The notes beneath the pieces are model-generated. The model did not search any database. It was not told the DNA's origin and was given only the letters and a program-made list of their open reading frames with translations. Shown one piece after another: positions 2,354 through 53,476 of a stretch of 64,000 nt of DNA (position 1 is its first letter; every line of letters starts with the position of its first letter). A program made the translations under genes and the position numbers. This DNA is from Giardia intestinalis (Eukaryota). The DNA lies in the NCBI GenBank assembly GCA_000002435.2, contig CM018791.1. One strand, 5' to 3'.

Positions 2354-2513
2354 TTTTAACAGCCGCTCAACAGCACGGAAGCTACGACCTCCTTGCTAAT
2401 TGCTAGCCCTATGTGCTTCTCTAATTGATGAGTGCGATGTGCATGCAGTAGCCAGTGCTGAAGGTAGGCCTAGTTACACTGTCCAGATAATCTGCCAGCA
2501 TAAAAAAATCCAA

Positions 2514-5500: not shown

Positions 5501-8012
5501 CACTAACTCTAAGAAAGCCTCCGACAACACTCTGGACATAACTCAACAATCGCAGGATGTAAGCAATCGCATTGACCAGGTGTCTCTTGCAATCATCGGT
5601 GTACACGTGGCCATCCTTCTAGGAGGGTATGTGTACATCTCTGAGTCCCAATTGATGGCCCTTTTCAGCATAGACAATGAACTTAAAGAGATCTGCGGAG
5701 CCACCCTAATAGATCTGGCCAGCACCGCATTCAACTTGGCATCGGTTGATAGGTACGCTTGCCTAGTAACACGCAACATGCTATTCAAGCACGTAACGTG
5801 TTGCCCATGGACTATTCTCGCTCTGTATAGTTCTTTTCATGAATGGGACGTGGTTCCTTCGTGCAATATCAACTATCGACACGCAATTTACTACAATCTT
5901 TTGCGAAGGTTGTGCAGTACATGTACCATAGTCCCAGATGAGCTTTGGGGAAAGAGCTGGTCTACTATGATGGCGTCAATAGCACACTCAAACAATACTA
6001 TGACCGACGAAGCAAAGGGCAGAGCAGAAAATAATATCAAAGTGGATGTCACTCAAAATCCGCTACTGATAGAGATTTACAACACACTGATAGAGGAGGC
6101 CAACAGCAGCTATCAAAAGTTCAATAGGCGATCTTCGCAATCAATAGACATAGGCTTGGTTATGGAGAAAGCCCAGTCTCTTATGGCTGTGTTCCCAGAG
6201 TTTGTTAAGCGCATTGAAGGCGATCATATTTCGTCTCTATCAGAGTGCTTATTTACCGACATCGACGCAGGGACTGAACTCTTGATCCAGACGCCCTACC
6301 TGAAGCGCTTCCCCAGAGAGACTGATCGGATAATCGCTATCCTTCCCGTGCTGGGATACGGGTCGCATCTCTACGCATTATCAAAGGATAGCACACGAAC
6401 CTCTAAGCTGATATCCTATTACAATGTCCTCATTGAGACCATTCTCTTTCCCTTCACTATTAAGGTAGACGACACGCAGACCCCGGTCAAAATGGTTCAG
6501 CAGGTATCTCCCATCATTATCTATGATATCCTACCAGTGTCAACGCGTGCGACAGTCATGCCTGCGTTCAAGTTGCTGGAAGCTGTGCATACTCTTCTGC
6601 TATTTCAGCTACGTACTGATCAACGTGCACTGCAGCTCCAGACAAGCTACAGTTTGTTCATGATGATTACTGCTGCTCACTATGGGCTGGTCTTTGCATA
6701 CTCTTCAGAAGAAGCCCAGTCAGAGTCAAGAAAGACTATCACTGCTACAACTCTATTCGGAAGTAGAACCATGCAGAAGGCCATTCTACACGGTATTTCC
6801 TCAACTGCTTTGCGAACGCTCCTCACATGCGTTGAGTTTGGCAACATGCCATGTCGCTTGATTGGAATCTTGGTTGCCGGGTTTGCAGCGTATATCGTTG
6901 GATATTGTGAAATAGACTTTACCTTTGTCTTTAATAATGATGAAGAAGCCACACTTCCGAATTCTGTCAATGACGAGAGCGGAGTCGTAATATCTATAAG
7001 TAAGTACTATTTGCTGCAGAAAAATATGAAGTCTAACATCCCAGATGTTCCTGGAAAGGGTCTCACTGCCTCTATGATGTCTAGTAGCGCGGTTTTGGCA
7101 GACGTGCTGCCGTCACCTACAGTGGTGAGGCAGTCTCTAACGCAAGAATCCATAGACTTCATGCACAAATTTGTTACTAAGTTAATCAATATATCGCTTC
7201 AAGCCATGGAGCAGTTTCCGATGTCGTTTATGCTTAGGCAGGAGGCTGGCTCAAGTCCACAGATAGCTCTGCTTTCAGGACGACCTGAGTACTCCGTCTT
7301 TATCTTAGTTTATGTTGTTCATAATTACGTCTTTCAGATAGCTTGCTCCATGGCCAATCAACACCGCATCACGATCCTGCACGCAGCTAAGTATCTCGTC
7401 TCTAGGAAGACGGGGATAACGCTATTTATTGATACGGCAATCCTCCTTCTGCTAGAAATACTGATGCACTCAGCTACAAATGTTATGCAATCTGCCGATG
7501 AGTGTAGCGGCTCTTTGTCCGCAGGGGCTCTCTCCGGGATCTCAGCTCCTCAATTCACGATTTCAATTCTACAGCTCTGCATTGCTAAGGCCTCGCGTTA
7601 CTCTACAAAGACGGCGGGTGGCGCAACATCTGTTTCGGAGGAAGCCAGGTCATTCCTTTACAAGACTGTGCTCAGCATATTTGCTCACCGCATAAAGACC
7701 TTTACAGACTACGAACGTGGGTTGCCACTAGATGTTTTGCTGCAAATACCGAGCGCACTGTTTGTCAAGGCTTCGGTTGACTCTGCTGCGGGCTCTGGTG
7801 AAACAGTATCGCGCAATACCCGCGATACAGTGCGGCAAAGTATCCTTGGGGCCACTCCTGTATATGTTAAAGAGCGTACGGTTATGTTTGCACAGAACTC
7901 TGAACTGTTAGATAGTTTGGCTAAGATCTCCCTGACCCCGAAAAATAAGGTTTCCAGCCCGTATTTAAGTTCTAGTCTGCGAGAAACCCCCAAGCGGAGA
8001 GTAAGGCCATAA
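2514..8012 (+). CDS. Large hypothetical protein (~1832 aa)
   Basis: Uninterrupted ORF. Track start 2400 is TTG; the first ATG is at 2514, preceded by CATAAAAAAATCCAAATG (AT-rich initiator). No domain recognised by eye. Helical/repetitive character. Confidence 0.6.
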   Translation: MAKDPFLARMRAEGILTSATEEDLTQWWVAENVSLFQSTLSQYVEAETREKRLALLDEACAVILAVFYSLYKELPATTMTTSLLSCSLETMRCIFNNGDLVHVTTSNFVPSLLLYLAVDGVILSLYSSVGVQFISNILSIAAGLAKHAPETFLDNHLGCFQSIVHSLLSTVPDEERAALIAFLVQASTARLSPFYILGGRSNAEYYEFLVRILSSAYGYPDQLLLAINGHIAAGCAAIEAALAQVDREEGLLLHDPSDSTDTKRAPCFDPLLFLMLDAGASYFFSVQSDDLRATTLNTIRSYTQHFFTLWIPFLLDLELRDAEVGMLFCSVFLERYRQMHYAFSSSSSIDETINIGKNFFAVRQVKSRFSINQKTFLIFNSNYPHMYNTQMEAQDNQQQDTYADEAGASKRSHKAKNRDTSQQLVNTTTAEEHIDRFYSPKPISIVLPCSVTDMPSLGILGSVLYSAILIGLTSHTSELRRRALDAAENLLWSVNYTFVSCQSNKSGKLPSMKAYAGEINNIMIPLVKDRFLDSCEYVREAAISIFANYYRVLLEYLDYATTLDTSTISEEDSMFVVLLERLDKLVEPHVYVRPLKIQLPPIESDLAVATNEELISLSLAERLNDKNTRVRSAATIALQSLYMTGYHRLATPLIHYAHKFGLEGEIELFKCFHANTHLSIYSVMHRILTFFDGVDAMDFFVFIRVLSRQKLLRKIVENTFTVLVAKRHGATFIKKQWDESIAGIYGEDQDAGTQTYFNSFYDYMVESARVKSLADFMNEGEALLDTIYNKITKKSTGSDGALHLSRIEDATEYITVAQRIKNKWLFLHIFSFPFCHEKFLHKIVKLTSVSYFYSYLEKQKDAEVFQTSPLTCALLLRSVLVVNSQLFVHWKHLSVRFFFNVFEETKASGAFASISPADQHGALDSSSSQKERGWRTRGTAASKFIEFSESLGLGIVSSKTSDPKTTSLNTLPLYQSDLATPSSEPDMTPVSIETTPTNSKKASDNTLDITQQSQDVSNRIDQVSLAIIGVHVAILLGGYVYISESQLMALFSIDNELKEICGATLIDLASTAFNLASVDRYACLVTRNMLFKHVTCCPWTILALYSSFHEWDVVPSCNINYRHAIYYNLLRRLCSTCTIVPDELWGKSWSTMMASIAHSNNTMTDEAKGRAENNIKVDVTQNPLLIEIYNTLIEEANSSYQKFNRRSSQSIDIGLVMEKAQSLMAVFPEFVKRIEGDHISSLSECLFTDIDAGTELLIQTPYLKRFPRETDRIIAILPVLGYGSHLYALSKDSTRTSKLISYYNVLIETILFPFTIKVDDTQTPVKMVQQVSPIIIYDILPVSTRATVMPAFKLLEAVHTLLLFQLRTDQRALQLQTSYSLFMMITAAHYGLVFAYSSEEAQSESRKTITATTLFGSRTMQKAILHGISSTALRTLLTCVEFGNMPCRLIGILVAGFAAYIVGYCEIDFTFVFNNDEEATLPNSVNDESGVVISISKYYLLQKNMKSNIPDVPGKGLTASMMSSSAVLADVLPSPTVVRQSLTQESIDFMHKFVTKLINISLQAMEQFPMSFMLRQEAGSSPQIALLSGRPEYSVFILVYVVHNYVFQIACSMANQHRITILHAAKYLVSRKTGITLFIDTAILLLLEILMHSATNVMQSADECSGSLSAGALSGISAPQFTISILQLCIAKASRYSTKTAGGATSVSEEARSFLYKTVLSIFAHRIKTFTDYERGLPLDVLLQIPSALFVKASVDSAAGSGETVSRNTRDTVRQSILGATPVYVKERTVMFAQNSELLDSLAKISLTPKNKVSSPYLSSSLRETPKRRVRP

Positions 8013-40382: not shown

Positions 40383-43300
40383 CTACGTCCGAGGCTGCTG
40401 CTCAAATAAGTTCTTAATAAACAGAGCCAATAGTAGCTGTCGCCTCAAATGAACGTCTGCAGAGGAGAGTATCTCCGAAACAGGTAGTATTTGCATGCAG
40501 AGATCGAGCATCTCATTCATCTTTTTCATCAAGGAGGAAGATGGCATGCTCCTGTTTTCAATATAGGTTCTGCGCAGCTCAAACGCATAGTAATATGCTT
40601 GACTAAGGAAGAACGCAGCGCAATCTTTACCCACTCTAACGATCATATGGTAGTCAATATCGTTCTTTTTGGTCTGCACGACCTGCTCGAACTTTTTACA
40701 AAAGGCCTGTAGTACAGAGAAAGCATTGTCTTCTAAGGCACCTAGAATTCCGGACCACTTACTAGTTATATGATTAATCCTAGTTATCAAGATATTGCGT
40801 TGTATCATCAGCTCGTCTTCACGCAGAGGCTGCTCACGGATGAGACTCATGTATCCCAGGGCGTATTGCCAACTATCTTCGGTAAGGGGTTTTTCAAAGA
40901 ACAGATTGTCTTGGGAGTAAAGACCTGCTATATGTTCAAACAAAGCCCGCTCCGAGCCTTCTAAGTTATTCTTTTTGTTGACTACGCTGGGAAACAATTT
41001 GTTGAGAAGCTTAAGGATCACAGATAACGTTTCTTTATATGAGGAGACAGACAATTCATCTCCAGAGGACTTGGTTGGCATTGCAGCAGCATTGCTCGAG
41101 TATCCGATTGATTCCCATCCTGCTCCAAAGGGCGATGCATTGGAGTGCAGCTGTGAGTAACTTCTTTGGGGAGTAATTCCAAAGTGAGACGGGGGTTGAG
41201 CCTGATAATACGGCATATTGAGATAAGGCGATGAGCTCTGGTATCCCAGATGGTCCTGGTTGAGAGTGTGGTACTGCCCAGGACGCAGTTGAGATTCTGG
41301 AGCGCTTGCAGCCCGTGCTCCTGCTAGAGGGTATTGCTGAGTAAGTAGTCGCTGGTGCATGAGGGATCCCTGTTCCGCTTGATATGACATGCTTGCCGGT
41401 CCATAGCCATTGGAGTGGGGATACGCACCGGTTCTCATTGTAAAAGGATCATACCGGGTAGGCGGCGGATACGTCTGGGAGTGTACCCCCGGATAACGTG
41501 GTGCTGGAAGCATGTCAGTTCTTTGGTAGGGCTCCATTCCTCTGCCCTGTCTGCCATAGTATCTGTTGCCTCCCACCGCCCCATACGGAGCTCTTGGTCC
41601 CCCCGGTGCCCCCTGCGGATACTGAAGCTTTTCTTGGGGATAAGCCGTTGCATCGTGGTACTCTCCTGGTTGTCTATGAGACTGTGGGGCGCTACTAGGT
41701 CCGAATTGACCGATTCTTGGACCCATCTGGTAAGGAGGAGTAGGGCCAGAGGTCCCCGGCGTGTGCGTGTACCCAGTGGGCGTAGGCATGGCTCCAAAAG
41801 CGGTTGGTTGCGTGCATGTAGTCTGTATAGAGGGAGAATAGGGTGGTACGTCTACGCTGAATATTTCGTTGAGACGGTTTTCTGGATGTGCTTTCAAAGC
41901 TATAAGCCGTACATGGCTCCTAGAAGCCTGCATAATATTGCGGGATATGTCTATTACACTGTTCAAGTCGTGATTGTAATACTGCTCGTTGAGATTGCTT
42001 AGTAGTATGCGCTCCGTGGCAAGACCATAGATCAAGAGCCGATGCCTCTCTTTAATAAACTCTGCTGTTACAGGGACGCGAATAGCCTGCAGGATTGATG
42101 GCCACCTATCCTTGATAAGAGCCGAAAACTGCTTGATGGCAAATGTGATCTGTTCTGAACTGGGTACTCGTCTGAGACGCTGCAGTAGATCGAAGTTGAA
42201 GAGAAACTCATCTGAAAATAGTGGCACCACAGCCTGCCATGGTATAGCATGCACATAGTACGCGTTCCATCGCTCCTTCAAGACAGGATGGAGCTTGACA
42301 TCACATCGTTGAGTGAGAGTATGGGTGGGGAACAAGAGATTGCACGTGTCGGTGTTGGTACACGCATTGGGGAACTTATTATAGGCTTTTTCGAGCATGA
42401 GCGTAAGTTGCTGGAATATGGGGAGGAGGATCTTGGCTAGCTGGATAGGATTTGTGGTGTGCGAACAGTTGTACTCCTTCTTATCCATCAGAAGCTGCTG
42501 ATACTTACCCCGGTATCGAACGTACGCATGTAGGACCTTCAAATCAGACAATTTTGACCACGCGGAGTGAATCAGCTCCGCCACTGTCATCACAATCTTT
42601 ATATCTTCCTCTGCTACCTGCGGAGCGGGGCTAGCCTTGAGAGCGGCGATATCGTGCAAGTTGAGTCCAAATTTTTCGAGAAACTCAATCTTGCAATAGG
42701 TAAGGTACAACCAACAATTCTTAAGGTCTGTAAGCCCGTATTCCTGGACGGTGAAGAGCGACCTCATTGTCAAGGGCGTTGAATAGTAGCGGCTGGCATA
42801 GGTAGGATCCATCATGCAGTCGTACATATAATCGACATACTCTATCATTAGGTCAATTGCGCAGGCGCTTGGATGAATTCTAAGAACATATTGCTTGATG
42901 GTACTGAAGCTTTGCTGTAACGTCCCCTGTTGTCCGTAGTATTGAGAGCTACGAGATGGTAGCATCCTCGGGTTTATCAAAGAACTTGCCTGAGTATGCG
43001 AGTTAGTGGTGTAGTAAAATGGGGGTAAGTAGTAAGAGATGTTCCATAGTAGTCTATATGCTAAGGCGGCAGGTGAGCATGCGACGTCATTGATGGCCGC
43101 AGTCTCTGGAGAAACAGGTTCCTGTAGGCCTTCATTGGAGGTGTTGGCAGTGTCGGCCTCTGGATTGCTTGCTGCCCTTGGGGTGGTGAGATTTTGAAGA
43201 GAGAAGTCTTCAATGTACTGATTGCAGCATTGAAGCCAGTAATTCTCTACCACAGGGACTTGCTGGATGCCACGGGAAAAGACAGTGGCATACTTTGATC

Positions 43301-46300
43301 CCGTGTTACACAGACACCAATCGAATGAAAATAATAGATAGTTATACCGCACAGAAAGTTCTTTCAGCTTTCCTTGCAAAATTCGAAGCAGGTAAAGATC
43401 GTGTGTGGCCTTACTTATGTCTGTGTTCTGAACATATGGCCGTAACTCATCTGGTAGCTTGCGGCACTTCTTGACCATAAGCCAGAGTATCTGTAGGAAA
43501 GTAACGGAGGCCCGTAGGATAGTGCTAACGGGAAGAGAACGATCCTTAGTTGTCATAAGGAGATATGTGCGAATAATATTCTCATACATCTCCAAGGGCG
43601 TTGTCCCAAGTCCCACACCAATGGACATTATAATCTCGATCAGAAGCTGCCTGTTGTGTTCTGGAATCAGAGTCTCAAAGTCACTGACAAGGGACTCGAT
43701 CTTCTGTTGCTCTACGCTATCGGTGACTAGCCCCGACACCATAAAGTTACTCGACATCAGGGCAGACAGTATAGTATGCTCCTTCATGCTTATGCCGGAC
43801 ACCGGATCCTGAAGAAATACCGCAAGTAGATCCTGTTGGCCAGCCTCTCTCTGAGGGATATACATGTAATTGACTAAGTACCTTAGAAAGAAGGAATCTA
43901 AATCTGTGTGGTCATCGGGGAAACGATAAGGCTCATAAATATAATCGAACAGTCCCCCGTGTAGATATGTTCCGCCAACTACAAGAAACCTCTCGGCCAT
44001 GTGGAGACGGGCTCGTTGTTTTGGAGTACTGTCGCTTTGTTCGCCTAAGCTAAGGTAGCTCCCATCAATCGGCGTTGATTGGTCACGCGACGCAGTGGAA
44101 GGTAACTCGCTAGAAGATCCTTGGGGCAATGGTACAAAGTCCCCCAGTGCAACTGAGAGAGTGTTTTGCACTTTGGAGAAGGCTATCTGGGGGTAGAAGA
44201 TGCTGTTCTGGTTGTCCATGGGATAGGCCCGCATGAGCAGCATCCTAATGGTTCTAAGCACCACATGTAGGAGAACTTTCGTAGGAATTGGAGCAAGCCC
44301 TTGGAGCGTCGCTTGAGGTAGCAACGCGGGAGTGCTTGTAGTTTTAGAATAGATAGCATTATCCTTAAATAAGTCCAACTGGATCTTGCTTGTGGCAGGA
44401 GTTAGAACCATACGGTTATAGGTTTCTGCGATCATATGCGCTGATAATACAGAATTAAGTGCAGGAGACGTGCTGGCACCGTTGTCCACTACCGACGGCT
44501 GCACCAGAGAATTGCTTTTATCCTGGTGTCCTGTGCGCTCTACCAGTCCCGGATGAGTAGAACTAATAGAAGACAGATCCAGTGAGTTCATTAGTGGCGA
44601 GTCATAGATATGAAGATTGGCCGTCGAGAACCGCTCCACATAGAGATTCTCAGTTGCCGGAAGCTGCTTGAGGGAGTCCTGTTCTAACCCGTTGTTTGTA
44701 ATGCTTACTGATGACGTATATCGGAGACTGCATTCCGCAGCTGGAGCCTCATCTGTGGCTTCAAGCTGGGGCTTCATTATAGAATGAGGATAGGGATGGA
44801 CATTGGCAATCCCATAGCGGCGTTGTTCGAAGGGTCGCGGCCTATTGCTTGTTGCACTAGCAGATGGTGAACACAACTTTTGCATAAAGGTCTCAGATAT
44901 ACTATTGCACAAGACTTTGGGCGCGCCATCTTCTGAGGCAGACTGTATTAACGCGAGATAGTCCTGATTTGCTGATATTTCATAATGATAGACACCAAAA
45001 GCTAATCGGTAAATCCATGAATAGTCACAGGAAAAGAGCGTGGTGAAAGAATCCACTGTGAGAAGGCCATCTTGGGCATACGCGTGAACGTACTGATTCA
45101 GTAGTGTAGTGTCCACCAGCGCTAGAGGCGAGCTCATTGAGATGGTACGGATCTTTGCGCGAACCAGTCTGTGGATGTAGACGAGCTGAGGAGTAAATTG
45201 TATGGTACCTAAGTCGGTCAAGGCATGAGCAACGCTGAACTCCAACGTGCTGAAAGTCCTGAAAAGCTCTTGGCAAAGATCTGGTCCTTGCGTCCAACGC
45301 AGAGGTAAAGCTACGGAGTCTTCGTTCTCTAGGTAAAGCGAGATAAGCTGAGGAACATTAGTGAAAAAGTGGTAAATGAGCAGGTTATCAGCAATGACGT
45401 TTGTAGAGCTATATAAGCTTCCCTTGAAAAGATACTCGTTGGACCTACATAATTCGCTAGTATGTAAGAGCTTGCACGGGTGAACTCCATTATACGCTAG
45501 AATTATGCTACTAAATTGTAATAGAAGATGTAAATAACAAGGCGATTCAGGACCCAAGACTAAAGAGTGGCCATAGAGGAAGGTGTGCTTAAGCATAAAC
45601 GCCAAAAAAGAAGCGTCGTCCTTCAGCGTAGATGCAGTATATGAGTACTCATGTCCTCTGGGCCCCCTGGGATCAAGCAGAAAGGCGGGAATGTCGGCAA
45701 GAAGCAGACGAAGGATGACGTAGTATTTAAAGAATATAGAGTTATATCCTAGGGAAGCGAACACGAGGTTGCTGTCGATTGTCTTCAGAAGTGTGTGAAG
45801 CACTGTGCCTGTAATGTCGTACATCTTCAGCCAGTTCTCTGAAAAGACTTTCTTGCATAGGTTGCAGTGACGAAGAAGCCCTCGTAAGGACGAGTAAATG
45901 GGGTATAACGTGTACGGAATGGCAAAGTCCATGGCTGCACATATTGTTTTGTGCCTAAACAGCGCATATGTCTTGGCTAATGCCCGAGAGTACTCTGTCA
46001 CCGTGGACTGCAGTGTATTCTTTTTGATATGCGCAGAAAAGAAGCTTGTCAAGATGTGCAGTACAGCCCTGTTTCCTATGCGATCAAAGGGGTGGCTTGT
46101 CTGGCAAGAGGTGCTCAGCTTTCGTTGTAAAGACATGAACTGTATGTGGATGCTCTCTTGACCGTCTAAAGATGCGACTGTTGTATATAACAGATGGTTC
46201 AATAGCTCACAAACCGCCCGGCCGTAAAGAATATACTCATACCTATATACTAGATGCCCGTACTCATTGGCGATGTCGCTTCTTGTCGTTTTAGCAAAGT

Positions 46301-49300
46301 AGAGACAGGGGACCTGAAGCTCTGAGACACAGCCGACACACTTCTTTGAAAGAATATAGGAGTACGCAGCACTCACGTATGCAAGGGCGTACTCCTCCAG
46401 AACAAAAGCTGGTGTGCCGTGATGTAGCATATTCCTCTTCAGAAGCCCGTCTATCGTGAGGTATACATTAGATGCTAAAGTTTGTGGGAGCCCAGCCTCT
46501 TCTATACACTGTAGACAAAGACTCTCATGCTCATTAGCGCCGCAGTACGACAGACACGTTAAGTTCGATTGGTAAACACCATCCGATAGTATCGTGCTTT
46601 GGCTTTCAAGAGACGATTCCTGATAGAGCTTACACTGTCTAAAAACAGTTTGAGAGTTAGGTGTGATAATGTGCTGCGGGTTGACTGACGGTTTGTTGTC
46701 GAGCTGGCATGCTTGAACGAGGACCTTGACATCCTTCGTGTTTAGATTTGGAGTGGCAAGAAGCCCTGGATCAAACAGCTTCTGACAAATGAAGCAATAA
46801 TACAGTAGTGAGTTGTCTAAACTGGGATAGCTTAAATCTTTGTTACTTCTAGGGAGAGAAAACATAGCAGATGAATCGGCGGCGACGGGTTGCACTCCGT
46901 ACTGCTTTAGCAGCTTACGCTTCTCAGCAGACAAGTCCGCATCCAGCTCTCGAGTGCAGATGTTGTGGCATTCTTGGCATACTGGAAAGGACTTATCTAG
47001 GGTATATAGAGGTGTTAAAACGGATGAGTAACCATTGATGTAGTGCTGGACACTACTAGACTCTTTGAAAGTGTCTACAAAGCCCGCGGATGCTGGCAAC
47101 ATCCGAGGAATGGTGTGCGAAGAAGGATTCATGGAATAGAAGTCCAGTTTTGGCGGTATCGGCGGTTGGATGCTGAGGTTGAAAATATTCTGCATCGATG
47201 CAACCGTCACTTGCATGTCTGTTTGACCCTGGGAGTGCTCAACAGACCCGTCGAAATACGTGTAGAGAAACTCCGTAGGCGTCAACGTGGGGCCTTCAGG
47301 CTTTCGAAATAGTCTACCCATCTTGCTAAATAGGGGCGCGTTGATTGACGAGGTCCCAACTACGTTGCCAGAAATAACAGAAAACGCGGGTGATCCACGA
47401 AAGACATCTGGAGCTGCAGGCTCCTCCGCCCCGTCGTCAACAGAGCCTAGTTCTACTGAAGCTCCTGCGCTGCTCGGCGCTGGTCGAGTCCGCAGCTTCG
47501 ATGGTCCTGCTACGTCTTTTGCTCTCACTGACGTGTTCAGAGAGTCCACCGGGCTGCTTACATCGTTGGAAAACGAAGAATCTCTATGAGATATAGTAGC
47601 AACGGTAGGGGACCCGGCATAATATATGTAAAACGGTGTTGGGTCAAAGACTATTTTCAGAGACTCATAACTCATGCCAGCCGATTGTGGTCCACGGTCT
47701 TTTCTTTTGAGTATTTTGGGACTCTGATGATGCTCTCTATATACGGCTTTTGTCTGCGTGACAGAGGTCAGAGAATGCGATCGTAGAAGGCTCTCGTCAG
47801 TCTTACTCTTGCATGCTTGTACCATGTCTCTGAGTGTCGCTTTCACATTCATGAACAAGTACTGAATGGCCCCCTGTAAGAGCAAATCACAATCAAGCCA
47901 GGCACTGACCGTTCGTCGGACTAGCGGATCTATAAGATAAAGGCTCTGGGGCTTCAGATTTAAGCATGTATCAGTGAGCTTGGACATCTGGTTGCCAATG
48001 TTCGCCTGGTGTTGCTGGAAGGAGGTACAGCTTGCATGCACACAGACTCGTACAAGCTCATGCGTGGAAAACTTAAGAAGACTCTCCTGTAAAGATCTAT
48101 TGCTGAGATCTGCTTTCCGTGTGCCTTGCTTTAAGTCTATGGCTGCACATGTATCAGCAATATAGTCTCTCAATACTATAGATAGGGAATGAACCTCTCC
48201 ATATAGTACGTGGGTTGATTGAAACTGAATCGAGAATAGCGAATCCTCGAGCGAATGCTGGCAAAGATTCTGAAGGATGTATGGTGGCGACACAGAGTGT
48301 GGGGAGCTTTTTGATAATACCTGGTAGTCGTAGCAGAGCTTAGTGAATAGGTGGGCCATAGGCCTGGTACTAACAAATGGCATAGCAGCCAATAGGCTGG
48401 TGAAATCATAACCAGCAGGCACTGGTTTGTTCTTACCCCTTATTACCGGGGGCGTAGTCTGTGAACAGGCCTCGCTGAAAGCAAGTAGCATGAGCAGCAG
48501 CGTCTCTGGAACGACAGACACAACAAGGTCACTGGTTAAATTATCTGAAGCAGTTGTGCCTGCATTGCCTACTGCGTCCCTTATGTGTTGATAGTATGCC
48601 GGATAGGGAGCACCACTGCCAGTATCACCATTGCTGTTGGAGCAGTTAGCTTGTAGTTCTACTGCCTCTAAATCTGGTACGAAGATAGAGTCGAAAAACA
48701 CCGAAAGAAGCAAACGATTGAGTGCGTAAGTAGCAAGCTTGCGCATACTAAACGTGTCGTCGTCTGCATTTGATATCGATGCCAAAAGGCGTTCAGAGAC
48801 AGTCTTTTCGATAGTAGCAGATGTAAGCATGGTCAACACGTCCACCACAGTAATCCTTCCCGAATAGACATACCGGAGAAACACAAGGGTAGGCTTCACC
48901 ATAATATCAGGAACAAGGTACACCAGTGCAGTCTTTGTCCGGATAAAGATGGCCTGCGAAATAGCGTTAGAAAGCCCGGCTGCCTTTGCAAGCTTTACAG
49001 AGTGATCTGAGAAAAGCACACCCTGACACATAAACGCACTTGTCAATGCAGAGATCTGAAGAGCTCTTGACTGGGCGAGGTGCAAAGAATACACTACGAG
49101 GGAGTCAAAAAAAGCGTGCTCATTAATGTCAGCAAAGCCCGACGGATCCAGTTTAAAGTGCTTATTATATTCCTCACCGAGGCTTAGGCACGCATCTGTC
49201 CAGAGATAAATTAATAGCTGGAAGACGGCGTAACGAGCAACGGTGATGTATAATGGGTAGGATATTTTTGCCAGCGTATTCGGAACTTCTATCTCAAGAT

Positions 49301-52300
49301 ACCGCTTAAGCAGGGCTGGGCGAGAGTCATCGAAAATCACACGCCTAACGTTGGCGTCAATATCGAGGAATGTTCGCTGCAGAATGATTTGATCGAAGGT
49401 CTGCTGCATAATAAATACAAAAGATGGCTGAATAGAAGGCCTAGATGACAGAAACTCCTGCAGTTCAGCACACATCTCGGTGCTGAACTTGGATACTGAA
49501 AGAAAGTCCAATTGAAGCGCCGACAGTCTACTTGCACCAGAGGACTCAGAAGATACCGATACACTGCTTGAAGATGTGTCTTTGGCTGTTAAGGCTTGAA
49601 GCTCACTCAGCTCTTGCTGCTGAATGTAATCGGGGTTGTGAGCAATTAAGCCGCAGCCACATACAAGTCCGCTGGAGCACCGCACAGTGTTTAAGACGCT
49701 GCTTGATGATACCGATTCAATACTTCTCCTCAGCACCGTAGATCCAAATGGGGTTAAGGCAACGTTAAGCTGTCTGAGAAGACTGGCTGGAATATGAAGC
49801 CTAGCTACTTCATCGTCCAAGTTGTACGCTTGTATGTGAAGAAACAGGACAGAAAAAATTCTGTACGGGGTGTGTCTAGAGACGGCGTCGGTTGCCTTCT
49901 GCTTGATGTCATTGTAAAACTCGGTGCACTTGCGCCTATACTCCTCTATAGTGGATATCTTCACTTGGTCACGTGGATAGCCTGCGAAATATATGCTCAT
50001 GTTGCTAAGATGGCGCGACAGGTCAGTCGCCGTGTCAGCTGGCCTATTCTTCTCCCGTATATTTGTGAACACAGCCAGCTCTGCAGCGACTATCTGCGAG
50101 TGAACAGCCTCTGGCAGATAACCAGCGTCCAGAAAGTCTAGTAGTGCAAATGTGAGCATGATCTGAACAGGCTTTATAGCAGCGCTACTATCCATACCGA
50201 ACATGGAACTTAAGGCCTCTGAAATCAACTGAAACGTCGACAGCAACGTGTTTTTGGGAATGTGAATTAAAAATGACAGAATGGTTAAGCCCGCATGGAA
50301 CACATCCGCATCCATGGAGCTGAGCGACAGCAAAGCCTCTCTCAAAAGATCTATGGGGGCTTTCTCAGAGAGGCTAATGTTTGCTACTTTGGTAAGGGGC
50401 TCTGTAGTAAAGAGAGGGAACTCTTTACGCCCGGCAAAAAACCTGTATTTCGATGTAATGTTGTAACAACAATCAAGGTAATTGTACTGCTGCGGCGTCA
50501 TCTCCAAAGCTTCCTCTACAAAGATGCTTTCAAAGGGGATTTGGGAGAACACGTCTAAAAGTCTCATTGCCGCCTGAAAAGAGGCCACAATAATATAAGC
50601 AGGGAGTTGCTGGCAGATACGTTTTATAGATAAGACCTGTTTGCCATTTCGTTGAAAGAGTACAGTATCCGATGGATTCATCTTCAGGTGTGGCTCCACA
50701 AAGGTCTGTGAGAGAGGCTCTTTGACTACCTCGAACTCATTAGATGTACCATCACTCTTGCAGGGCTTGATGTAATAGTTGTGACAATCTTCTAAGTAAC
50801 CATCTAAATCTATTGCCTCTTGCAATCCGAGCTTTAAGGTAGCCGACGGTGAATTTGCTGATTGCTGAATATCATGAATTGCCTGCTCTTCCGGGAGCTT
50901 AGCATGTGCAACCCTTAATTTGAAATTGCACACATTACACCACACCCCCATAATAATAGAACACGCACACTTAGATATGGTCAAGACAGGCGAGCATGCG
51001 CTCCATCGTAATTGGTACCCTGTTTCGTTGAGGAGTTGCAGTCTCCGGGTAAAGTTTCCACTATTCTTTTGTGGCCACGTGGCACAGAGATGGTTGCCCT
51101 TTGCAGCATTCTTAAGGATGGCACGCTCGAGGGCGGTGTACTGTCGCAGATCTGAAGTGTTGCCACCGGTCTCTGGTCGTGCCTTAATAGTCTTGGTCTG
51201 AGATTTTCTAACAGCTGTGACAGCGCTCAGAGGTTGTTGCTTTAATACCCGAGGATCAGAGGGTTTCGAGGCCCGCTTTAATGCTTGCGATTTAAAGTTT
51301 GCACCAAAACCGCAAGAAAGAAGGGATTTAGCATCTAATGCACACAATTCGGGTGACGTCCTCGCCGCGGGAGCGCATCTATCCGCACTATCTTGATATA
51401 GAACTGAGGATATGATTTCTGCCGTAGAAACTCCTTGCGGAACCAAAACGTCTGCAACGCTGTCAGTCTGCCTAAGTGACCTAATAAACGAAGACAGAGA
51501 GTCTGAAACATTAGAAGACAAAACGGGGGACTGAAGCAGGTCAGACTCCTTCTTGATACGCGGGGGCCTGCCACGAGTAGGCGCGCTTTCTGTTACGACC
51601 AACTCCTCTGATAACTGATGCTGACACGGACAGTTATTAAGCTCACAGGTATCACACTCACTGGTCGTTCTTTTAGGTAGATCTGAAGATGTGGTAAAGA
51701 TATATCGACGTATAAAATCTATGGATGCAGAATCACTCGAGCAGTAGAGAGCATATTGATTCAGCTGTATATTGGTGAGCTCGTTGCTCCAGTTAATAAG
51801 ACGCTCATCAGTGCTAACAACGATCAAAATTGGTCGTTCTAAAGGTAAGAATGATGTGTATTCGTGGCTATCATCGCCACACCCCTCTTTATTATTGCTA
51901 GCCAGGATCTTCTGGACATTTGTTACAAATTCCGCCGGCGTAGAATTCATCGTCTCATGGATTGCAGGGTCCATTGGCTGAAATGATAGCTTTTCGCCCT
52001 TTTCGTGGTAGGGAACATTGTATTGGTATATCTTTGGAAACTTTCTTGTGCTACATCCATCTTGCTGTTGCTTTTCTTTCTCTAAGCTCTTGACAGACAT
52101 GAAGTACGCAGCGTATGGAACTCGCCCAGAGGGTAGATTAGAGTCCCAGAAAGGGGTTGAATATGCCTTGCTGATAGTCGCATACTCGTTAAACTTAAGG
52201 AAAGTGCAGAACAGCTTTGTTGTGAGCGGATATGGTCCTCTCTTTGAACCGGTGGCGGCATCTGCACGTGACTCAATAACGCTGAACCACGAACTGCCCA

Positions 52301-53465
52301 GACAGTTATGGATCGCTCTTCCAAAGAACGGTCGAAACAGTCGGTAGATAGCTATGTTGGAGAGGATCTCGGATACGTTGGATGTTGATCTAAGAAAGAG
52401 AGAGTAGGGTATGTGTATTTTATACAACTGTTGGCTATCTATGAGAGGGATAATGCTCTGTGCCTTGTTGCGAATAGCAAAGAGTTCGAATAGTGTAGCG
52501 AAACTTGTACTGAAGATCTTACGGGCCAGGAAGAACGAGTTCCTGTAGCAACGGCAGGCCTTGGAAATGAGAAGGCAATTCTCTGTGTATATGTAGAAGT
52601 ACAAAGCGTGTAAGCCATACGGAACAAAGAGGATGCGCTCCCAGAAACGTTCGCTGACCGACAGATTCTTCCAAGTTACAAGTCCATAGACATTAATAAT
52701 TTCTTCTAACGTTGGTATGATTATTCCACGATGTGATTTCTCTCTAAGTGCATTGAAGCAACAGGAGTACTTCTGGATATTATAAATATATATCGGAGAC
52801 GAACTAGACAAAGATGGGAGTATCGAGAAGGGCCAGGGATCGCTTGAGTTTGTAATGGTGCCAGCACTAGAAGTGGTGTGTTCAGGAGAGCTAAGAGCCT
52901 GATCAAAGTATATCGAGGAGACCTGTCCAAAGAAGCGCTGTTCTACGACGTCCAAGCTCAGCCCAGGACCGGATCCTTGCTTAGTGACAGGGTTGTACCA
53001 CATATGAATCTTTTCAACCAAATAGATAAAGTTGGAGACGAATTTTACGTCGCCTTGAGTCAGCTCTTGCTGTGTGCTAGGGTCCAACTGGATGATTGGA
53101 GGCCGATAGTTTCTTTGCTCAATAGTAGACGGTGCACCAGCACCTCTTGGTGGGCTCATATTCATACCGGTAGAAAGCCTAGTTTCAATCTGCAAAATAT
53201 AGTCCTTGAGGGCTCCCCCGAGAGCTGGGTATGTAAACCAACAGAAGTGCATGCTTGATAGGCCTGCTATCCCACAAAGATACTTGTGGTGCTCCAAAGA
53301 CCCCTTTTCATCTTGAGTCGTCGACCCAACTGAAACCGCAGGGGACTTGGCCATAAGATGGCTGGCGTACTTCCCGATGGCCTCATTCACAAGCGGTTTG
53401 CTTTTTATAACGTACTTTATGTAGCTTTCAATGAGCTGGTTGGCACTAAGGGCCTCCCGTGGCAT
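40383..53465 (-). CDS. Giant hypothetical protein (4360 aa) with a C-terminal Q/P/Y/G-rich low-complexity region
   Basis: A single uninterrupted 13,083-nt ORF; this cannot arise by chance at ~48% GC. True ATG at 53463-53465. No family recognised. About 300 aa of prion-like YGQP-rich sequence near the C-terminus. Confidence 0.7.
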   Translation of the reverse strand: MPREALSANQLIESYIKYVIKSKPLVNEAIGKYASHLMAKSPAVSVGSTTQDEKGSLEHHKYLCGIAGLSSMHFCWFTYPALGGALKDYILQIETRLSTGMNMSPPRGAGAPSTIEQRNYRPPIIQLDPSTQQELTQGDVKFVSNFIYLVEKIHMWYNPVTKQGSGPGLSLDVVEQRFFGQVSSIYFDQALSSPEHTTSSAGTITNSSDPWPFSILPSLSSSSPIYIYNIQKYSCCFNALREKSHRGIIIPTLEEIINVYGLVTWKNLSVSERFWERILFVPYGLHALYFYIYTENCLLISKACRCYRNSFFLARKIFSTSFATLFELFAIRNKAQSIIPLIDSQQLYKIHIPYSLFLRSTSNVSEILSNIAIYRLFRPFFGRAIHNCLGSSWFSVIESRADAATGSKRGPYPLTTKLFCTFLKFNEYATISKAYSTPFWDSNLPSGRVPYAAYFMSVKSLEKEKQQQDGCSTRKFPKIYQYNVPYHEKGEKLSFQPMDPAIHETMNSTPAEFVTNVQKILASNNKEGCGDDSHEYTSFLPLERPILIVVSTDERLINWSNELTNIQLNQYALYCSSDSASIDFIRRYIFTTSSDLPKRTTSECDTCELNNCPCQHQLSEELVVTESAPTRGRPPRIKKESDLLQSPVLSSNVSDSLSSFIRSLRQTDSVADVLVPQGVSTAEIISSVLYQDSADRCAPAARTSPELCALDAKSLLSCGFGANFKSQALKRASKPSDPRVLKQQPLSAVTAVRKSQTKTIKARPETGGNTSDLRQYTALERAILKNAAKGNHLCATWPQKNSGNFTRRLQLLNETGYQLRWSACSPVLTISKCACSIIMGVWCNVCNFKLRVAHAKLPEEQAIHDIQQSANSPSATLKLGLQEAIDLDGYLEDCHNYYIKPCKSDGTSNEFEVVKEPLSQTFVEPHLKMNPSDTVLFQRNGKQVLSIKRICQQLPAYIIVASFQAAMRLLDVFSQIPFESIFVEEALEMTPQQYNYLDCCYNITSKYRFFAGRKEFPLFTTEPLTKVANISLSEKAPIDLLREALLSLSSMDADVFHAGLTILSFLIHIPKNTLLSTFQLISEALSSMFGMDSSAAIKPVQIMLTFALLDFLDAGYLPEAVHSQIVAAELAVFTNIREKNRPADTATDLSRHLSNMSIYFAGYPRDQVKISTIEEYRRKCTEFYNDIKQKATDAVSRHTPYRIFSVLFLHIQAYNLDDEVARLHIPASLLRQLNVALTPFGSTVLRRSIESVSSSSVLNTVRCSSGLVCGCGLIAHNPDYIQQQELSELQALTAKDTSSSSVSVSSESSGASRLSALQLDFLSVSKFSTEMCAELQEFLSSRPSIQPSFVFIMQQTFDQIILQRTFLDIDANVRRVIFDDSRPALLKRYLEIEVPNTLAKISYPLYITVARYAVFQLLIYLWTDACLSLGEEYNKHFKLDPSGFADINEHAFFDSLVVYSLHLAQSRALQISALTSAFMCQGVLFSDHSVKLAKAAGLSNAISQAIFIRTKTALVYLVPDIMVKPTLVFLRYVYSGRITVVDVLTMLTSATIEKTVSERLLASISNADDDTFSMRKLATYALNRLLLSVFFDSIFVPDLEAVELQANCSNSNGDTGSGAPYPAYYQHIRDAVGNAGTTASDNLTSDLVVSVVPETLLLMLLAFSEACSQTTPPVIRGKNKPVPAGYDFTSLLAAMPFVSTRPMAHLFTKLCYDYQVLSKSSPHSVSPPYILQNLCQHSLEDSLFSIQFQSTHVLYGEVHSLSIVLRDYIADTCAAIDLKQGTRKADLSNRSLQESLLKFSTHELVRVCVHASCTSFQQHQANIGNQMSKLTDTCLNLKPQSLYLIDPLVRRTVSAWLDCDLLLQGAIQYLFMNVKATLRDMVQACKSKTDESLLRSHSLTSVTQTKAVYREHHQSPKILKRKDRGPQSAGMSYESLKIVFDPTPFYIYYAGSPTVATISHRDSSFSNDVSSPVDSLNTSVRAKDVAGPSKLRTRPAPSSAGASVELGSVDDGAEEPAAPDVFRGSPAFSVISGNVVGTSSINAPLFSKMGRLFRKPEGPTLTPTEFLYTYFDGSVEHSQGQTDMQVTVASMQNIFNLSIQPPIPPKLDFYSMNPSSHTIPRMLPASAGFVDTFKESSSVQHYINGYSSVLTPLYTLDKSFPVCQECHNICTRELDADLSAEKRKLLKQYGVQPVAADSSAMFSLPRSNKDLSYPSLDNSLLYYCFICQKLFDPGLLATPNLNTKDVKVLVQACQLDNKPSVNPQHIITPNSQTVFRQCKLYQESSLESQSTILSDGVYQSNLTCLSYCGANEHESLCLQCIEEAGLPQTLASNVYLTIDGLLKRNMLHHGTPAFVLEEYALAYVSAAYSYILSKKCVGCVSELQVPCLYFAKTTRSDIANEYGHLVYRYEYILYGRAVCELLNHLLYTTVASLDGQESIHIQFMSLQRKLSTSCQTSHPFDRIGNRAVLHILTSFFSAHIKKNTLQSTVTEYSRALAKTYALFRHKTICAAMDFAIPYTLYPIYSSLRGLLRHCNLCKKVFSENWLKMYDITGTVLHTLLKTIDSNLVFASLGYNSIFFKYYVILRLLLADIPAFLLDPRGPRGHEYSYTASTLKDDASFLAFMLKHTFLYGHSLVLGPESPCYLHLLLQFSSIILAYNGVHPCKLLHTSELCRSNEYLFKGSLYSSTNVIADNLLIYHFFTNVPQLISLYLENEDSVALPLRWTQGPDLCQELFRTFSTLEFSVAHALTDLGTIQFTPQLVYIHRLVRAKIRTISMSSPLALVDTTLLNQYVHAYAQDGLLTVDSFTTLFSCDYSWIYRLAFGVYHYEISANQDYLALIQSASEDGAPKVLCNSISETFMQKLCSPSASATSNRPRPFEQRRYGIANVHPYPHSIMKPQLEATDEAPAAECSLRYTSSVSITNNGLEQDSLKQLPATENLYVERFSTANLHIYDSPLMNSLDLSSISSTHPGLVERTGHQDKSNSLVQPSVVDNGASTSPALNSVLSAHMIAETYNRMVLTPATSKIQLDLFKDNAIYSKTTSTPALLPQATLQGLAPIPTKVLLHVVLRTIRMLLMRAYPMDNQNSIFYPQIAFSKVQNTLSVALGDFVPLPQGSSSELPSTASRDQSTPIDGSYLSLGEQSDSTPKQRARLHMAERFLVVGGTYLHGGLFDYIYEPYRFPDDHTDLDSFFLRYLVNYMYIPQREAGQQDLLAVFLQDPVSGISMKEHTILSALMSSNFMVSGLVTDSVEQQKIESLVSDFETLIPEHNRQLLIEIIMSIGVGLGTTPLEMYENIIRTYLLMTTKDRSLPVSTILRASVTFLQILWLMVKKCRKLPDELRPYVQNTDISKATHDLYLLRILQGKLKELSVRYNYLLFSFDWCLCNTGSKYATVFSRGIQQVPVVENYWLQCCNQYIEDFSLQNLTTPRAASNPEADTANTSNEGLQEPVSPETAAINDVACSPAALAYRLLWNISYYLPPFYYTTNSHTQASSLINPRMLPSRSSQYYGQQGTLQQSFSTIKQYVLRIHPSACAIDLMIEYVDYMYDCMMDPTYASRYYSTPLTMRSLFTVQEYGLTDLKNCWLYLTYCKIEFLEKFGLNLHDIAALKASPAPQVAEEDIKIVMTVAELIHSAWSKLSDLKVLHAYVRYRGKYQQLLMDKKEYNCSHTTNPIQLAKILLPIFQQLTLMLEKAYNKFPNACTNTDTCNLLFPTHTLTQRCDVKLHPVLKERWNAYYVHAIPWQAVVPLFSDEFLFNFDLLQRLRRVPSSEQITFAIKQFSALIKDRWPSILQAIRVPVTAEFIKERHRLLIYGLATERILLSNLNEQYYNHDLNSVIDISRNIMQASRSHVRLIALKAHPENRLNEIFSVDVPPYSPSIQTTCTQPTAFGAMPTPTGYTHTPGTSGPTPPYQMGPRIGQFGPSSAPQSHRQPGEYHDATAYPQEKLQYPQGAPGGPRAPYGAVGGNRYYGRQGRGMEPYQRTDMLPAPRYPGVHSQTYPPPTRYDPFTMRTGAYPHSNGYGPASMSYQAEQGSLMHQRLLTQQYPLAGARAASAPESQLRPGQYHTLNQDHLGYQSSSPYLNMPYYQAQPPSHFGITPQRSYSQLHSNASPFGAGWESIGYSSNAAAMPTKSSGDELSVSSYKETLSVILKLLNKLFPSVVNKKNNLEGSERALFEHIAGLYSQDNLFFEKPLTEDSWQYALGYMSLIREQPLREDELMIQRNILITRINHITSKWSGILGALEDNAFSVLQAFCKKFEQVVQTKKNDIDYHMIVRVGKDCAAFFLSQAYYYAFELRRTYIENRSMPSSSLMKKMNEMLDLCMQILPVSEILSSADVHLRRQLLLALFIKNLFEQQPRT

Positions 53466-53476
53466 TTTTTAAAATG
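53463..53476. promoter_or_regulatory. Shared bidirectional initiator: two start codons separated by 8 nt (CATTTTTTAAAATG)
   Basis: Minus-strand ATG (53463-53465) of the giant gene and plus-strand ATG (53474-53476) of the SGNH hydrolase flank a near-palindromic T6A4 tract. Confidence 0.45.

Follow-up and report, generated by a model that had tools for sequence, protein, structure and literature searches.

In a published census of the SF2 helicases of Giardia seven 'Swi2/Snf2' open reading frames (ORFs) were found by PSI-BLAST, with best human matches to ARIP4, SNF2L/ISWI, BRG1, INO80 (GL50803_16370), XPB, CSB and CHD3, and neither SWR1/SRCAP/EP400 nor GL50803_113592 is listed (PMC3566956). Giardia is cited among the few eukaryotes without H2A.Z (PMC9236257). 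Human EP400, an ATPase of the INO80 family, is largely the architectural core of the TIP60 complex, and this core 'structurally disfavors nucleosome engagement' (10.1101/2024.07.30.605802). About 40% of the Giardia proteome is without an assigned function (PMC13322205). Among the largest of the unassigned proteins is the product of GL50803_113592, a gene on which the parasite, with its very compact genome, spends 13 kb and which is under strong purifying selection; it lies in a stretch of 64,000 nucleotides from Giardia intestinalis (assembly GCA_000002435.2, contig CM018791.1), which is referred to here as the window.

The reading that explains this protein best, to which a probability of about 45% is given as a whole, is that of a non-catalytic platform derived from an SNF2 protein, likely to act in chromatin. 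The N-terminal quarter would be descended from an SNF2 ATPase of the INO80/SWR1 class, of which only the core of lobe 1 (motifs Ia to III) is still recognisable; with the loss of motif I (the P-loop), of the DExH box and of motifs IV-VI, which make up the C-lobe, a pseudo-enzyme would be left. The RecA-like relic and two Cys4 modules may then act as binding surfaces for DNA, nucleosomes or partner proteins, whilst about 3000 conserved and mainly helical amino acids may form a scaffold for docking, next to a disordered segment rich in Tyr, Gly, Gln and Pro that could provide multivalent weak interactions. The scaffold role, the nuclear localisation and what binds where are all inferred.

The gene itself is a single uninterrupted ORF on the minus strand of the window (40383..53465) that begins with ATG and comprises 4360 codons followed by a stop, and the coding sequence is complete as judged from the ORF listing, its translation, exact-sequence identity, syntenic orthologues, selection and a transcript. 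By exact-sequence look-up the encoded protein is 100% identical to GL50803_00113592 (XP_037901799.1, UniProt D3KHJ6) of G. intestinalis WB clone C6, publicly annotated as 'hypothetical protein'; the gene model is thus already public. The chance of an open frame of 4360 codons at 47% GC is about (61/64)^4360, and as the frame is far too long for chance and has been kept intact in two other lineages it is therefore a real gene. An initial annotation, made from the letters of the window, had described one continuous 13-kb ORF of 4360 amino acids; its coordinates and length match exactly (no strand was given), the two peptides it quoted, GYTHTPGTSGPTPPYQMGPRIGQFGPSSAPQSHRQPGEYHD and YPPPTRYDPF, are both present in the translation, and the claim of a single gene agrees with the intact frame in assemblage B and in Giardia muris.

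The assemblage-B orthologue, whose cluster contains GSB_153044, has 4337 amino acids and is 73% identical over its full length, almost without gaps, in a fully syntenic locus where the gene order matches on both sides. Synonymous sites are saturated between the two copies (pS 0.70), and the ratio of non-synonymous to synonymous change by the Nei-Gojobori method (dN/dS) is 0.076 overall and no more than 0.17 in every segment for which dS could be estimated, the low-complexity segment included. The G. muris orthologue (GMRT_14184) is shorter at 3423 amino acids and only 24-28% identical, yet is colinear from end to end. When residues 201-1400 were searched with HMMER against 1.84 billion representative proteins the G. 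muris orthologue was the sole match, word-indexed searches of 5.8 billion proteins gave only Giardia matches, and a single-sequence search of that larger database with the G. muris protein returned only itself; to the extent that sequence searches can tell, the family does not reach beyond the genus Giardia. A transcript is present in the RNA-seq tables of PMC8866875 (supplementary file 8) at 7.38 log counts per million (logCPM), with small increases in four metronidazole-resistant lines. The identifier 113592 together with Giardia occurs in no main text and, within literature supplements, in those RNA-seq tables only; the localisation atlas, the paper on structure-based annotation and the expression map of encystation do not have it in their supplements. 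These data show a real and transcribed gene that is held under strong purifying selection.

A probable relic of the SNF2 N-lobe

Two blocks of the protein, residues 545-589 (block A, window 51699..51833, minus strand) and residues 948-1015 (block B, 50421..50624, minus strand), probably represent the two halves of an SNF2-family N-lobe of INO80/SWR1-like type, running from motif Ia to motif III. They were first seen by eye, as the sequence PILIVVSTDERLINWSNE, which starts at residue 545, resembles SNF2 motif Ia (GP.LIVVP.S.L.NW..E) and PAYIIVASFQ...FESIFVEEA...KYRFFAGR, which starts at residue 955, resembles FHVCIVSYQ...WQYMVLDEAH...RRLLLTGTP. For block A, PILIVVSTDERLINWSNELTN...ALYCSSDSASIDFIRRYIF, the alignment is with the SNF2 motif Ia/Ib pattern (GP.LIV.P.S.L.NW..E...(V)L.Y.G....R...RR.W.) and with positions 52-95 of the INO80/SWR1 profile with an hhalign score of 28-29 (P=2.5e-4). 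The residues P545, I548, T552, L556 and W559, invariant in the three Giardia orthologues, are those of the SNF2 consensus P, I, S/T, L and W, and the low-confidence AlphaFold2 model gives this block a strand-helix-strand-helix order. Block B, PAYIIVASFQ...FESIFVEEA...NITSKYRFFAGRKE, aligns to FHVxITSYQ...WQYMVLDEA(H/Q)...NRLLLTGTP, which covers the positions of motifs II and III, and to profile positions 93-160 with a score of 32-34.5 (P=8e-5); the block is further supported by HMMER and, in the orthologues, by Pfam.

The strength of this likeness was measured with lobe-1 and lobe-2 sequences of Swr1, SRCAP and INO80 taken from PDB entries. When the two blocks were spliced, hhalign of the three-species Giardia profile against the three-sequence lobe-1 profile reproduced the alignment made by eye over 110 columns with a score of 34.7 (P=1.1-1.6e-4), the null for this comparison, 240 constructs spliced likewise from other parts of the same protein, having a mean of 11.7, a standard deviation of 1.9 and a maximum of 18.4. 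Against a profile of 66 INO80/SWR1/SRCAP sequences the score was 45.0 (P=2.1e-6, probability 89%), and the corresponding 240 constructs had a mean of 12.7, a standard deviation of 2.1 and a maximum of 20.3. This rise from 34.7 to 45.0 as the profile is deepened is the behaviour expected of homology.

An unbiased scan of the native, unspliced alignment over all 4360 residues gives the same answer, with residues 948-1015 (34.5) and 545-589 (29.3) as its top two matches, colinear and abutting in profile coordinates (52-95, then 93-160), the third match reaching 16.5 and a reversed-sequence control 15.8. Taken singly, either block is placed correctly on the profile whichever SNF2 template is used. 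The SNF2 subfamily templates compared were INO80, SRCAP, Swr1 and ISWI, and the scores of the two blocks were 26.8 and 25.0 with INO80 and 19-21 with Swr1/SRCAP; with ISWI they were 14-17 and with the DEAD-box control eIF4A at null level (13), the sequences used for these last two being approximate only. The ranking of templates is INO80 > SRCAP > Swr1 > ISWI > eIF4A.

Searches with other programs point the same way. HMMER with its filters off matched each of the three orthologues separately at both block positions, with per-sequence P values of 5.6e-4, 6.9e-4 and 0.011, and 1.4 bits for the best shuffled or reversed control. When the spliced segments were compared with 24,736 Pfam models, SNF2-rel_dom was the sole match for assemblage B (12.1 bits, E=0.1) and the best match for G. 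muris (14.4 bits, E=0.02), with matches that span both blocks. The order of strands and helices predicted by the low-confidence models is that of lobe 1 (beta2-alphaB-beta3-alphaC, insertion, beta4-alphaD-beta5-alphaE-beta6), and the blocks are 80-81% identical to assemblage B compared with 73% for the whole protein.

Whilst part of lobe 1 can probably still be recognised, SNF2-type catalysis is almost certainly absent, to judge from the motifs. Neither a Walker A motif ([AG]xxxxGK[ST]) nor a DExH box (DE[ACSV][HDQ]) is found at any position of the three orthologous proteins. Profile positions 1-50, to which motif I belongs, are unaligned, and the corresponding region is not conserved between Giardia species. 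At the position of motif II, VEEA in the window, IEEA in assemblage B and VDSP in G. muris stand in place of DEAH, and at the position of motif III (LLLTGTP) G. intestinalis has RFFAGRKE and G. muris RILLTPVP, with the Arg and the hydrophobic strand preserved and TGT missing. The three-sequence lobe-2 profile gave only null-level scores across the whole protein (<=16.6), with an alignment of 7 columns at P=0.2 in the tile 1320-1560, and there is no match to Helicase_C in the Pfam tiles. No HSA, DBINO or SANT domain was detected, Pfam having been used for HSA and DBINO. As the Walker A motif, the DExH box and the C-lobe are absent in three species, DNA translocation by the SNF2 mechanism is therefore not to be expected, and on the sequence evidence the protein would best be described as an SNF2-derived pseudo-enzyme, not as a functional member of the SNF2 family.

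The two halves of the putative N-lobe are separated by a lineage-specific insertion, residues 590-947 (50625..51698, minus strand), which stands out by its alignment gaps and by the lowest conservation in the protein. It has about 360 amino acids here and about 150 in G. muris, is mostly variable or disordered, and is 59-63% identical to assemblage B and 2-11% identical to G. muris with 40-89% gaps. The insertion follows helix alphaC, in the same loop that carries a small insertion in INO80 when compared with SWR1. Within it a Cys4 knuckle, C833-x-C835-x6-W842-C843-x2-C846 (50928..50969, minus strand), occupies invariant columns of the three-species alignment, with conserved D893, H895, Y897 and Y898 further downstream, and the knuckle may bind zinc.

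Alternative explanations

A number of points weigh against a non-catalytic SNF2-derived platform and have to be set beside the evidence above. The residues explained as SNF2-derived number about 110 of 4360, with about 97% of the protein unaccounted for. The link to the INO80/SWR1 class is statistically supported yet falls below curated thresholds, in that the gathering score of 24.9 bits for SNF2-rel_dom (PF00176) is reached by no orthologue, the window's own copy has no Pfam match even after splicing, and hmmsearch of the Giardia profile against PDB sequences retrieved no SNF2 protein. The region was picked first by eye and the splice boundaries were chosen by the authors, although the native scan is independent of them. 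Structure prediction was of little help, the AlphaFold2 models of residues 490-1640 and of G. muris residues 400-800 being unusable (mean predicted local distance difference test scores of 30.5 and 35.4), too poor because the alignment has only three sequences, and Foldseek on both models gave only non-significant ARM/HEAT-like and P-loop-NTPase-like matches and no SNF2 protein. Only the secondary-structure strings of these models were used, as weak evidence, and the RecA-like fold proposed for the relic is derived from sequence comparison. It is the ancestry only that suggests a chromatin or nuclear setting, an NLS-like (nuclear localisation signal) basic cluster, KILKRKDR at residue 1917, is not conserved in G. 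muris, and all proteome columns for GL50803_113592 in PMC8866875 are given as NA.

Of the other explanations, the one that survives best accepts the relic and has the protein recruited outside chromatin, for instance as a cytoskeletal or organelle giant in which the relic is a fossil without a role at DNA. This is doubtful, whilst having several observations in its favour: for more than 95% of its length the protein is unrelated to any chromatin protein, the family is found only in Giardia, and no conserved NLS was found. Giardia has many lineage-specific cytoskeletal giants. The neighbouring ankyrin and NEK-kinase genes are typical of Giardia cytoskeletal biology, but carry little weight because Giardia has no operons. 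What speaks against a fossil is that the relic blocks are conserved above the average of the protein and that SNF2 consensus positions are where the orthologues have their conserved residues; a pair of conserved Cys4 modules is also more typical of nucleic-acid or chromatin proteins, and with GL50803_113592 absent from the 608-protein localisation atlas nothing places the protein at the cytoskeleton.

It is unlikely that the protein is purely a lineage-specific giant, either arisen de novo or diverged beyond recognition, in which the SNF2 likeness is due to chance or to convergence on a strand-helix pattern. Such a view can point to the candidate having been spotted by eye, to the failed structural test and to the lack of any match above a curated family threshold. 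It would have to explain, however, how a score of 45 arises where the null from the same protein does not exceed 20.3, why an unbiased scan has as its two best matches colinear segments that adjoin each other in the profile, why the signal grows with the depth of the SNF2 profile whilst the DEAD-box control (an approximate sequence) stays at null level, and why SNF2-rel_dom comes top of 24,736 families in two orthologues that share only about 25% identity.

If the SNF2-derived platform is accepted, its lineage within the INO80/SWR1 class can be considered. As the canonical INO80 (GL50803_16370) is already present in Giardia, the giant would be either a decayed paralogue or of a different lineage. 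It could be a decayed INO80 paralogue, which the ranking of templates slightly favours, or it could be a remnant of the otherwise missing SWR1/EP400 lineage, a relic of which is conceivable as Giardia has no recognised SWR1/EP400 orthologue and no H2A.Z. The more specific proposal, that the protein is the surviving scaffold of an SWR1/EP400-type machine for H2A.Z exchange whose ATPase decayed and whose platform expanded for another chromatin task, is quite unlikely; under this proposal it might organise a NuA4/MYST-type acetyltransferase or an INO80-related assembly by means of its helical body and Tyr-rich region.

Far less probable is that this is a highly diverged orthologue of a pan-eukaryotic giant, be it VPS13/BLTP, Fry/Mor2, TRRAP or another HEAT-repeat giant, an idea raised in the initial annotation for VPS13, Fry and HEAT-repeat proteins. 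The size and the lack of catalytic motifs would suit such a protein, as would the weak ARM/HEAT-like Foldseek matches to residues 1035-1640 or thereabouts, which are not significant (E>=0.03). However, Pfam at E<=10 gave nothing meaningful for the whole protein or its ten overlapping 480-residue tiles, nor for the G. muris orthologue, whole or in nine 400-residue tiles, and there is thus no match in either species to Chorein_N/VPS13, MOR2-PAG1, FAT/PIKK or HEAT, although for VPS13 such negatives have limited weight in an organism so divergent. No match outside Giardia was found among the 1.84 billion representatives, and PDB sequences gave no relevant match by phmmer (G. intestinalis and G. 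muris) or by hmmsearch with three-species profiles. VPS13 is not supported, the N-terminus being unlike the chorein motif and residues 1035-1640 being predicted, at low confidence, as helical and not as the all-beta groove; Fry/Mor2 is not supported either, the N, middle and C domains of MOR2-PAG1 being without any Pfam match. The initial annotation had correctly taken the DNA for that of Giardia and had seen that no catalytic motif is recognisable, there being no Pfam match and no Walker A or DExH box anywhere, and its idea of a Giardia-specific giant stands, but orthology to VPS13, Fry or a HEAT-repeat protein finds no support from Pfam, and the sole traceable ancestry, the probable degenerate INO80/SWR1-like SNF2 N-lobe at residues 545-1015, was missed. 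Self-BLAST of the protein detected no internal repeats.

That the protein is an active, highly unorthodox SNF2-type ATPase is scarcely credible, as the acidic residue with which motif II begins in every orthologue (E984 here and in assemblage B, D in G. muris) has to be weighed against a protein with neither P-loop nor DExH box anywhere, no C-lobe, and a motif I region that is not conserved between Giardia species.

The rest of the protein and its neighbourhood

Upstream of the relic lies a conserved N-terminal domain, residues 130-480 (52026..53078, minus strand), which is 82-91% identical to assemblage B. It carries the motifs YNPxxxxGSGxG, WERI..VP.G and H(I/V)PYS.F.R, contains the part of G. 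intestinalis that scores best against G. muris (E=1.7e-34, with 19-224 of the 201-1400 tile as the query range) and has no Pfam match.

Downstream of the relic is a predominantly helical region, residues 1035-1640 or thereabouts (48546..50363, minus strand), as assigned by DSSP from the low-confidence AlphaFold2 model. Here residues 1301-1400 are 35% identical to G. muris, and residues 1349-1381 (49323-49421, minus strand) form the best-conserved motif of the family, FxxxxQTxxQIIxQRxFLDxDxNVRxxxFDD. The corresponding sequence, FVFIMQQTFDQIILQRTFLDIDANVRRVIFDD, was considered as SNF2 motif IV or the FYDSDWNP motif and rejected, being a likeness seen by eye without support from hhalign. Composition and conservation indicate further ordered blocks at 1650-1950, 2050-2900 and 3150-3890, with disordered linkers between them. 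A second Cys4 module, C2163-x2-C2166 ... C2224-x2-C2227 (46785..46979, minus strand), is apparent from the motif map and its invariant cysteines; in G. muris it reads CxxC-x15-CxxC, which is zinc-ribbon-like, and G. intestinalis has a 57-residue insert between the pairs. Both its fold and the binding of a metal are predicted from this pattern.

Towards the C-terminus residues 3885-4135 (41061..41813, minus strand) form a low-complexity segment rich in Y, G, Q, P and S (P 14%, G 12%, Q 9.6%, Y 9.2%, S 9.6%), with a Tyr every 6-12 residues, 6% aliphatic and 10% charged residues. Its P+Q+G+Y fraction is 0.54-0.55 per 100 amino acids, compared with a median of 0.18 for the protein and a maximum of 0.39 in the 22 other ORFs of the window. 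The dN/dS of 0.17 is the highest among the segments where it could be estimated and still indicates purifying selection, and G. muris has a counterpart at the same position that is richer in P and S. The segment had been picked out from the start as prion-like, and it is indeed a real and unusual compositional outlier, but with Q+N at 12% it is probably not a classical Q/N prion domain, which would be dominated by Q/N over 60 amino acids or more; by composition it appears to resemble the aromatic 'sticker' regions of FUS type more closely than yeast prion domains. The protein ends with a domain of order-promoting composition, residues 4140-4360 (40386..41048, minus strand), which is 64-75% identical to assemblage B, is aligned to G. 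muris residues 3227-3423 and has no Pfam match.

At the other end of the gene a spacer of 8 bp consisting of A and T, TTTAAAAA as read on the minus strand (53466..53473, assigned to neither strand), separates the ATG of the giant gene (53465, minus strand) from the ATG of a divergent GDSL-lipase gene (53474, plus strand), and in assemblage B the same two genes are 11 bp apart. In the light of Giardia promoters in general, we take this spacer to be a putative AT-rich initiator of Giardia type common to both divergent genes; positions 53463-53476 would then form an initiator region of extreme compactness used in both directions, as is typical of gene starts in Giardia.

The neighbourhood is Giardia-like, with genes for ankyrin '21.1-like' proteins, NEK-type kinases, a hybrid-cluster (prismane) protein, an MFS transporter and a partial dynein heavy chain. 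The last of these, the ORF at 28978-33309 (plus strand), encodes only the portion from the end of AAA1 to AAA4, together with the microtubule-binding stalk, as if a dynein gene had been split; at its 3' end it shares 42 bp with the convergent hybrid-cluster gene (33268-34974, minus strand). The ORF at 38700-40355 (plus strand, 551 amino acids) is convergent with the giant gene, their stop codons 27 bp apart, and contains a moderately P/Q/G/Y-rich patch of 0.39 per 100 amino acids; neither it nor the ORF at 23254-25239 (minus strand, 661 amino acids) has a Pfam match. Further away, the ORF at 2400-8012 (plus strand, 1870 amino acids) encodes another large protein without an assigned function, with only a sub-threshold HEAT-repeat match (23.0 bits, cutoff 23.5), and in the ORF at 25318-27405 (plus strand, 695 amino acids) leucine-rich repeats occur together with a GILT (gamma-interferon-inducible lysosomal thiol reductase) domain. 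The end of the window, 62001-64000, has a GC content of 0.42 compared with about 0.48 elsewhere and a strongly negative GC skew of -0.17.

Significance and comparison with known systems

An origin from an SNF2/INO80-class remodeler minus its motor would give an otherwise opaque 'hypothetical protein' its first evolutionary anchor. It also provides a testable hypothesis on Giardia chromatin, which is without H2A.Z and a recognisable SWR1 and has to be coordinated between two nuclei. If true, this would be a clear case of a chromatin-remodeler pseudo-enzyme, and we know of no other, although the literature was not searched for one. With a family that is limited to Giardia and nothing corresponding in the host, the protein would be a parasite-specific target if it is essential.

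TRRAP/Tra1 is a pseudo-kinase giant of about 3800 amino acids that has lost its catalytic residues and is the docking platform of NuA4 and SAGA. The likeness to the Giardia giant is one of concept, as the fold and ancestry are unrelated (PIKK, not SNF2) and no sequence similarity was found. SHPRH-type SNF2 proteins have modules inserted into their lobe 1, a zinc finger among them, although these proteins keep their ATPase motifs and have H15, PHD and RING domains. The comparison with SHPRH is a lead and concerns the split lobe 1 only, H15, PHD and RING not being detected in the Giardia giant.

By the scores the closest is INO80, the best of the templates tested, in which the lobe-1 motifs Ia, Ib, II and III are colinear with the putative Giardia relic. 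It differs in that the relic is without the Walker A motif, the DExH box, a detectable C-lobe, HSA and DBINO, and in that the Giardia protein is more than twice as long. The SWR1/SRCAP/EP400 group (p400, Domino) is similar in overall build, as these too are giants (3100-3200 amino acids in human), whose INO80-family ATPase lies towards the N-terminus or in the middle and whose C-terminal regions include long Q-rich stretches of low complexity, the likeness of the latter to the Giardia segment being compositional only. All of them retain the ATPase motifs and both lobes, however, and the relic scores lower against Swr1 and SRCAP than against INO80. EP400 nevertheless offers, by analogy, a precedent for an INO80-family ATPase that is used mainly as an architectural core.

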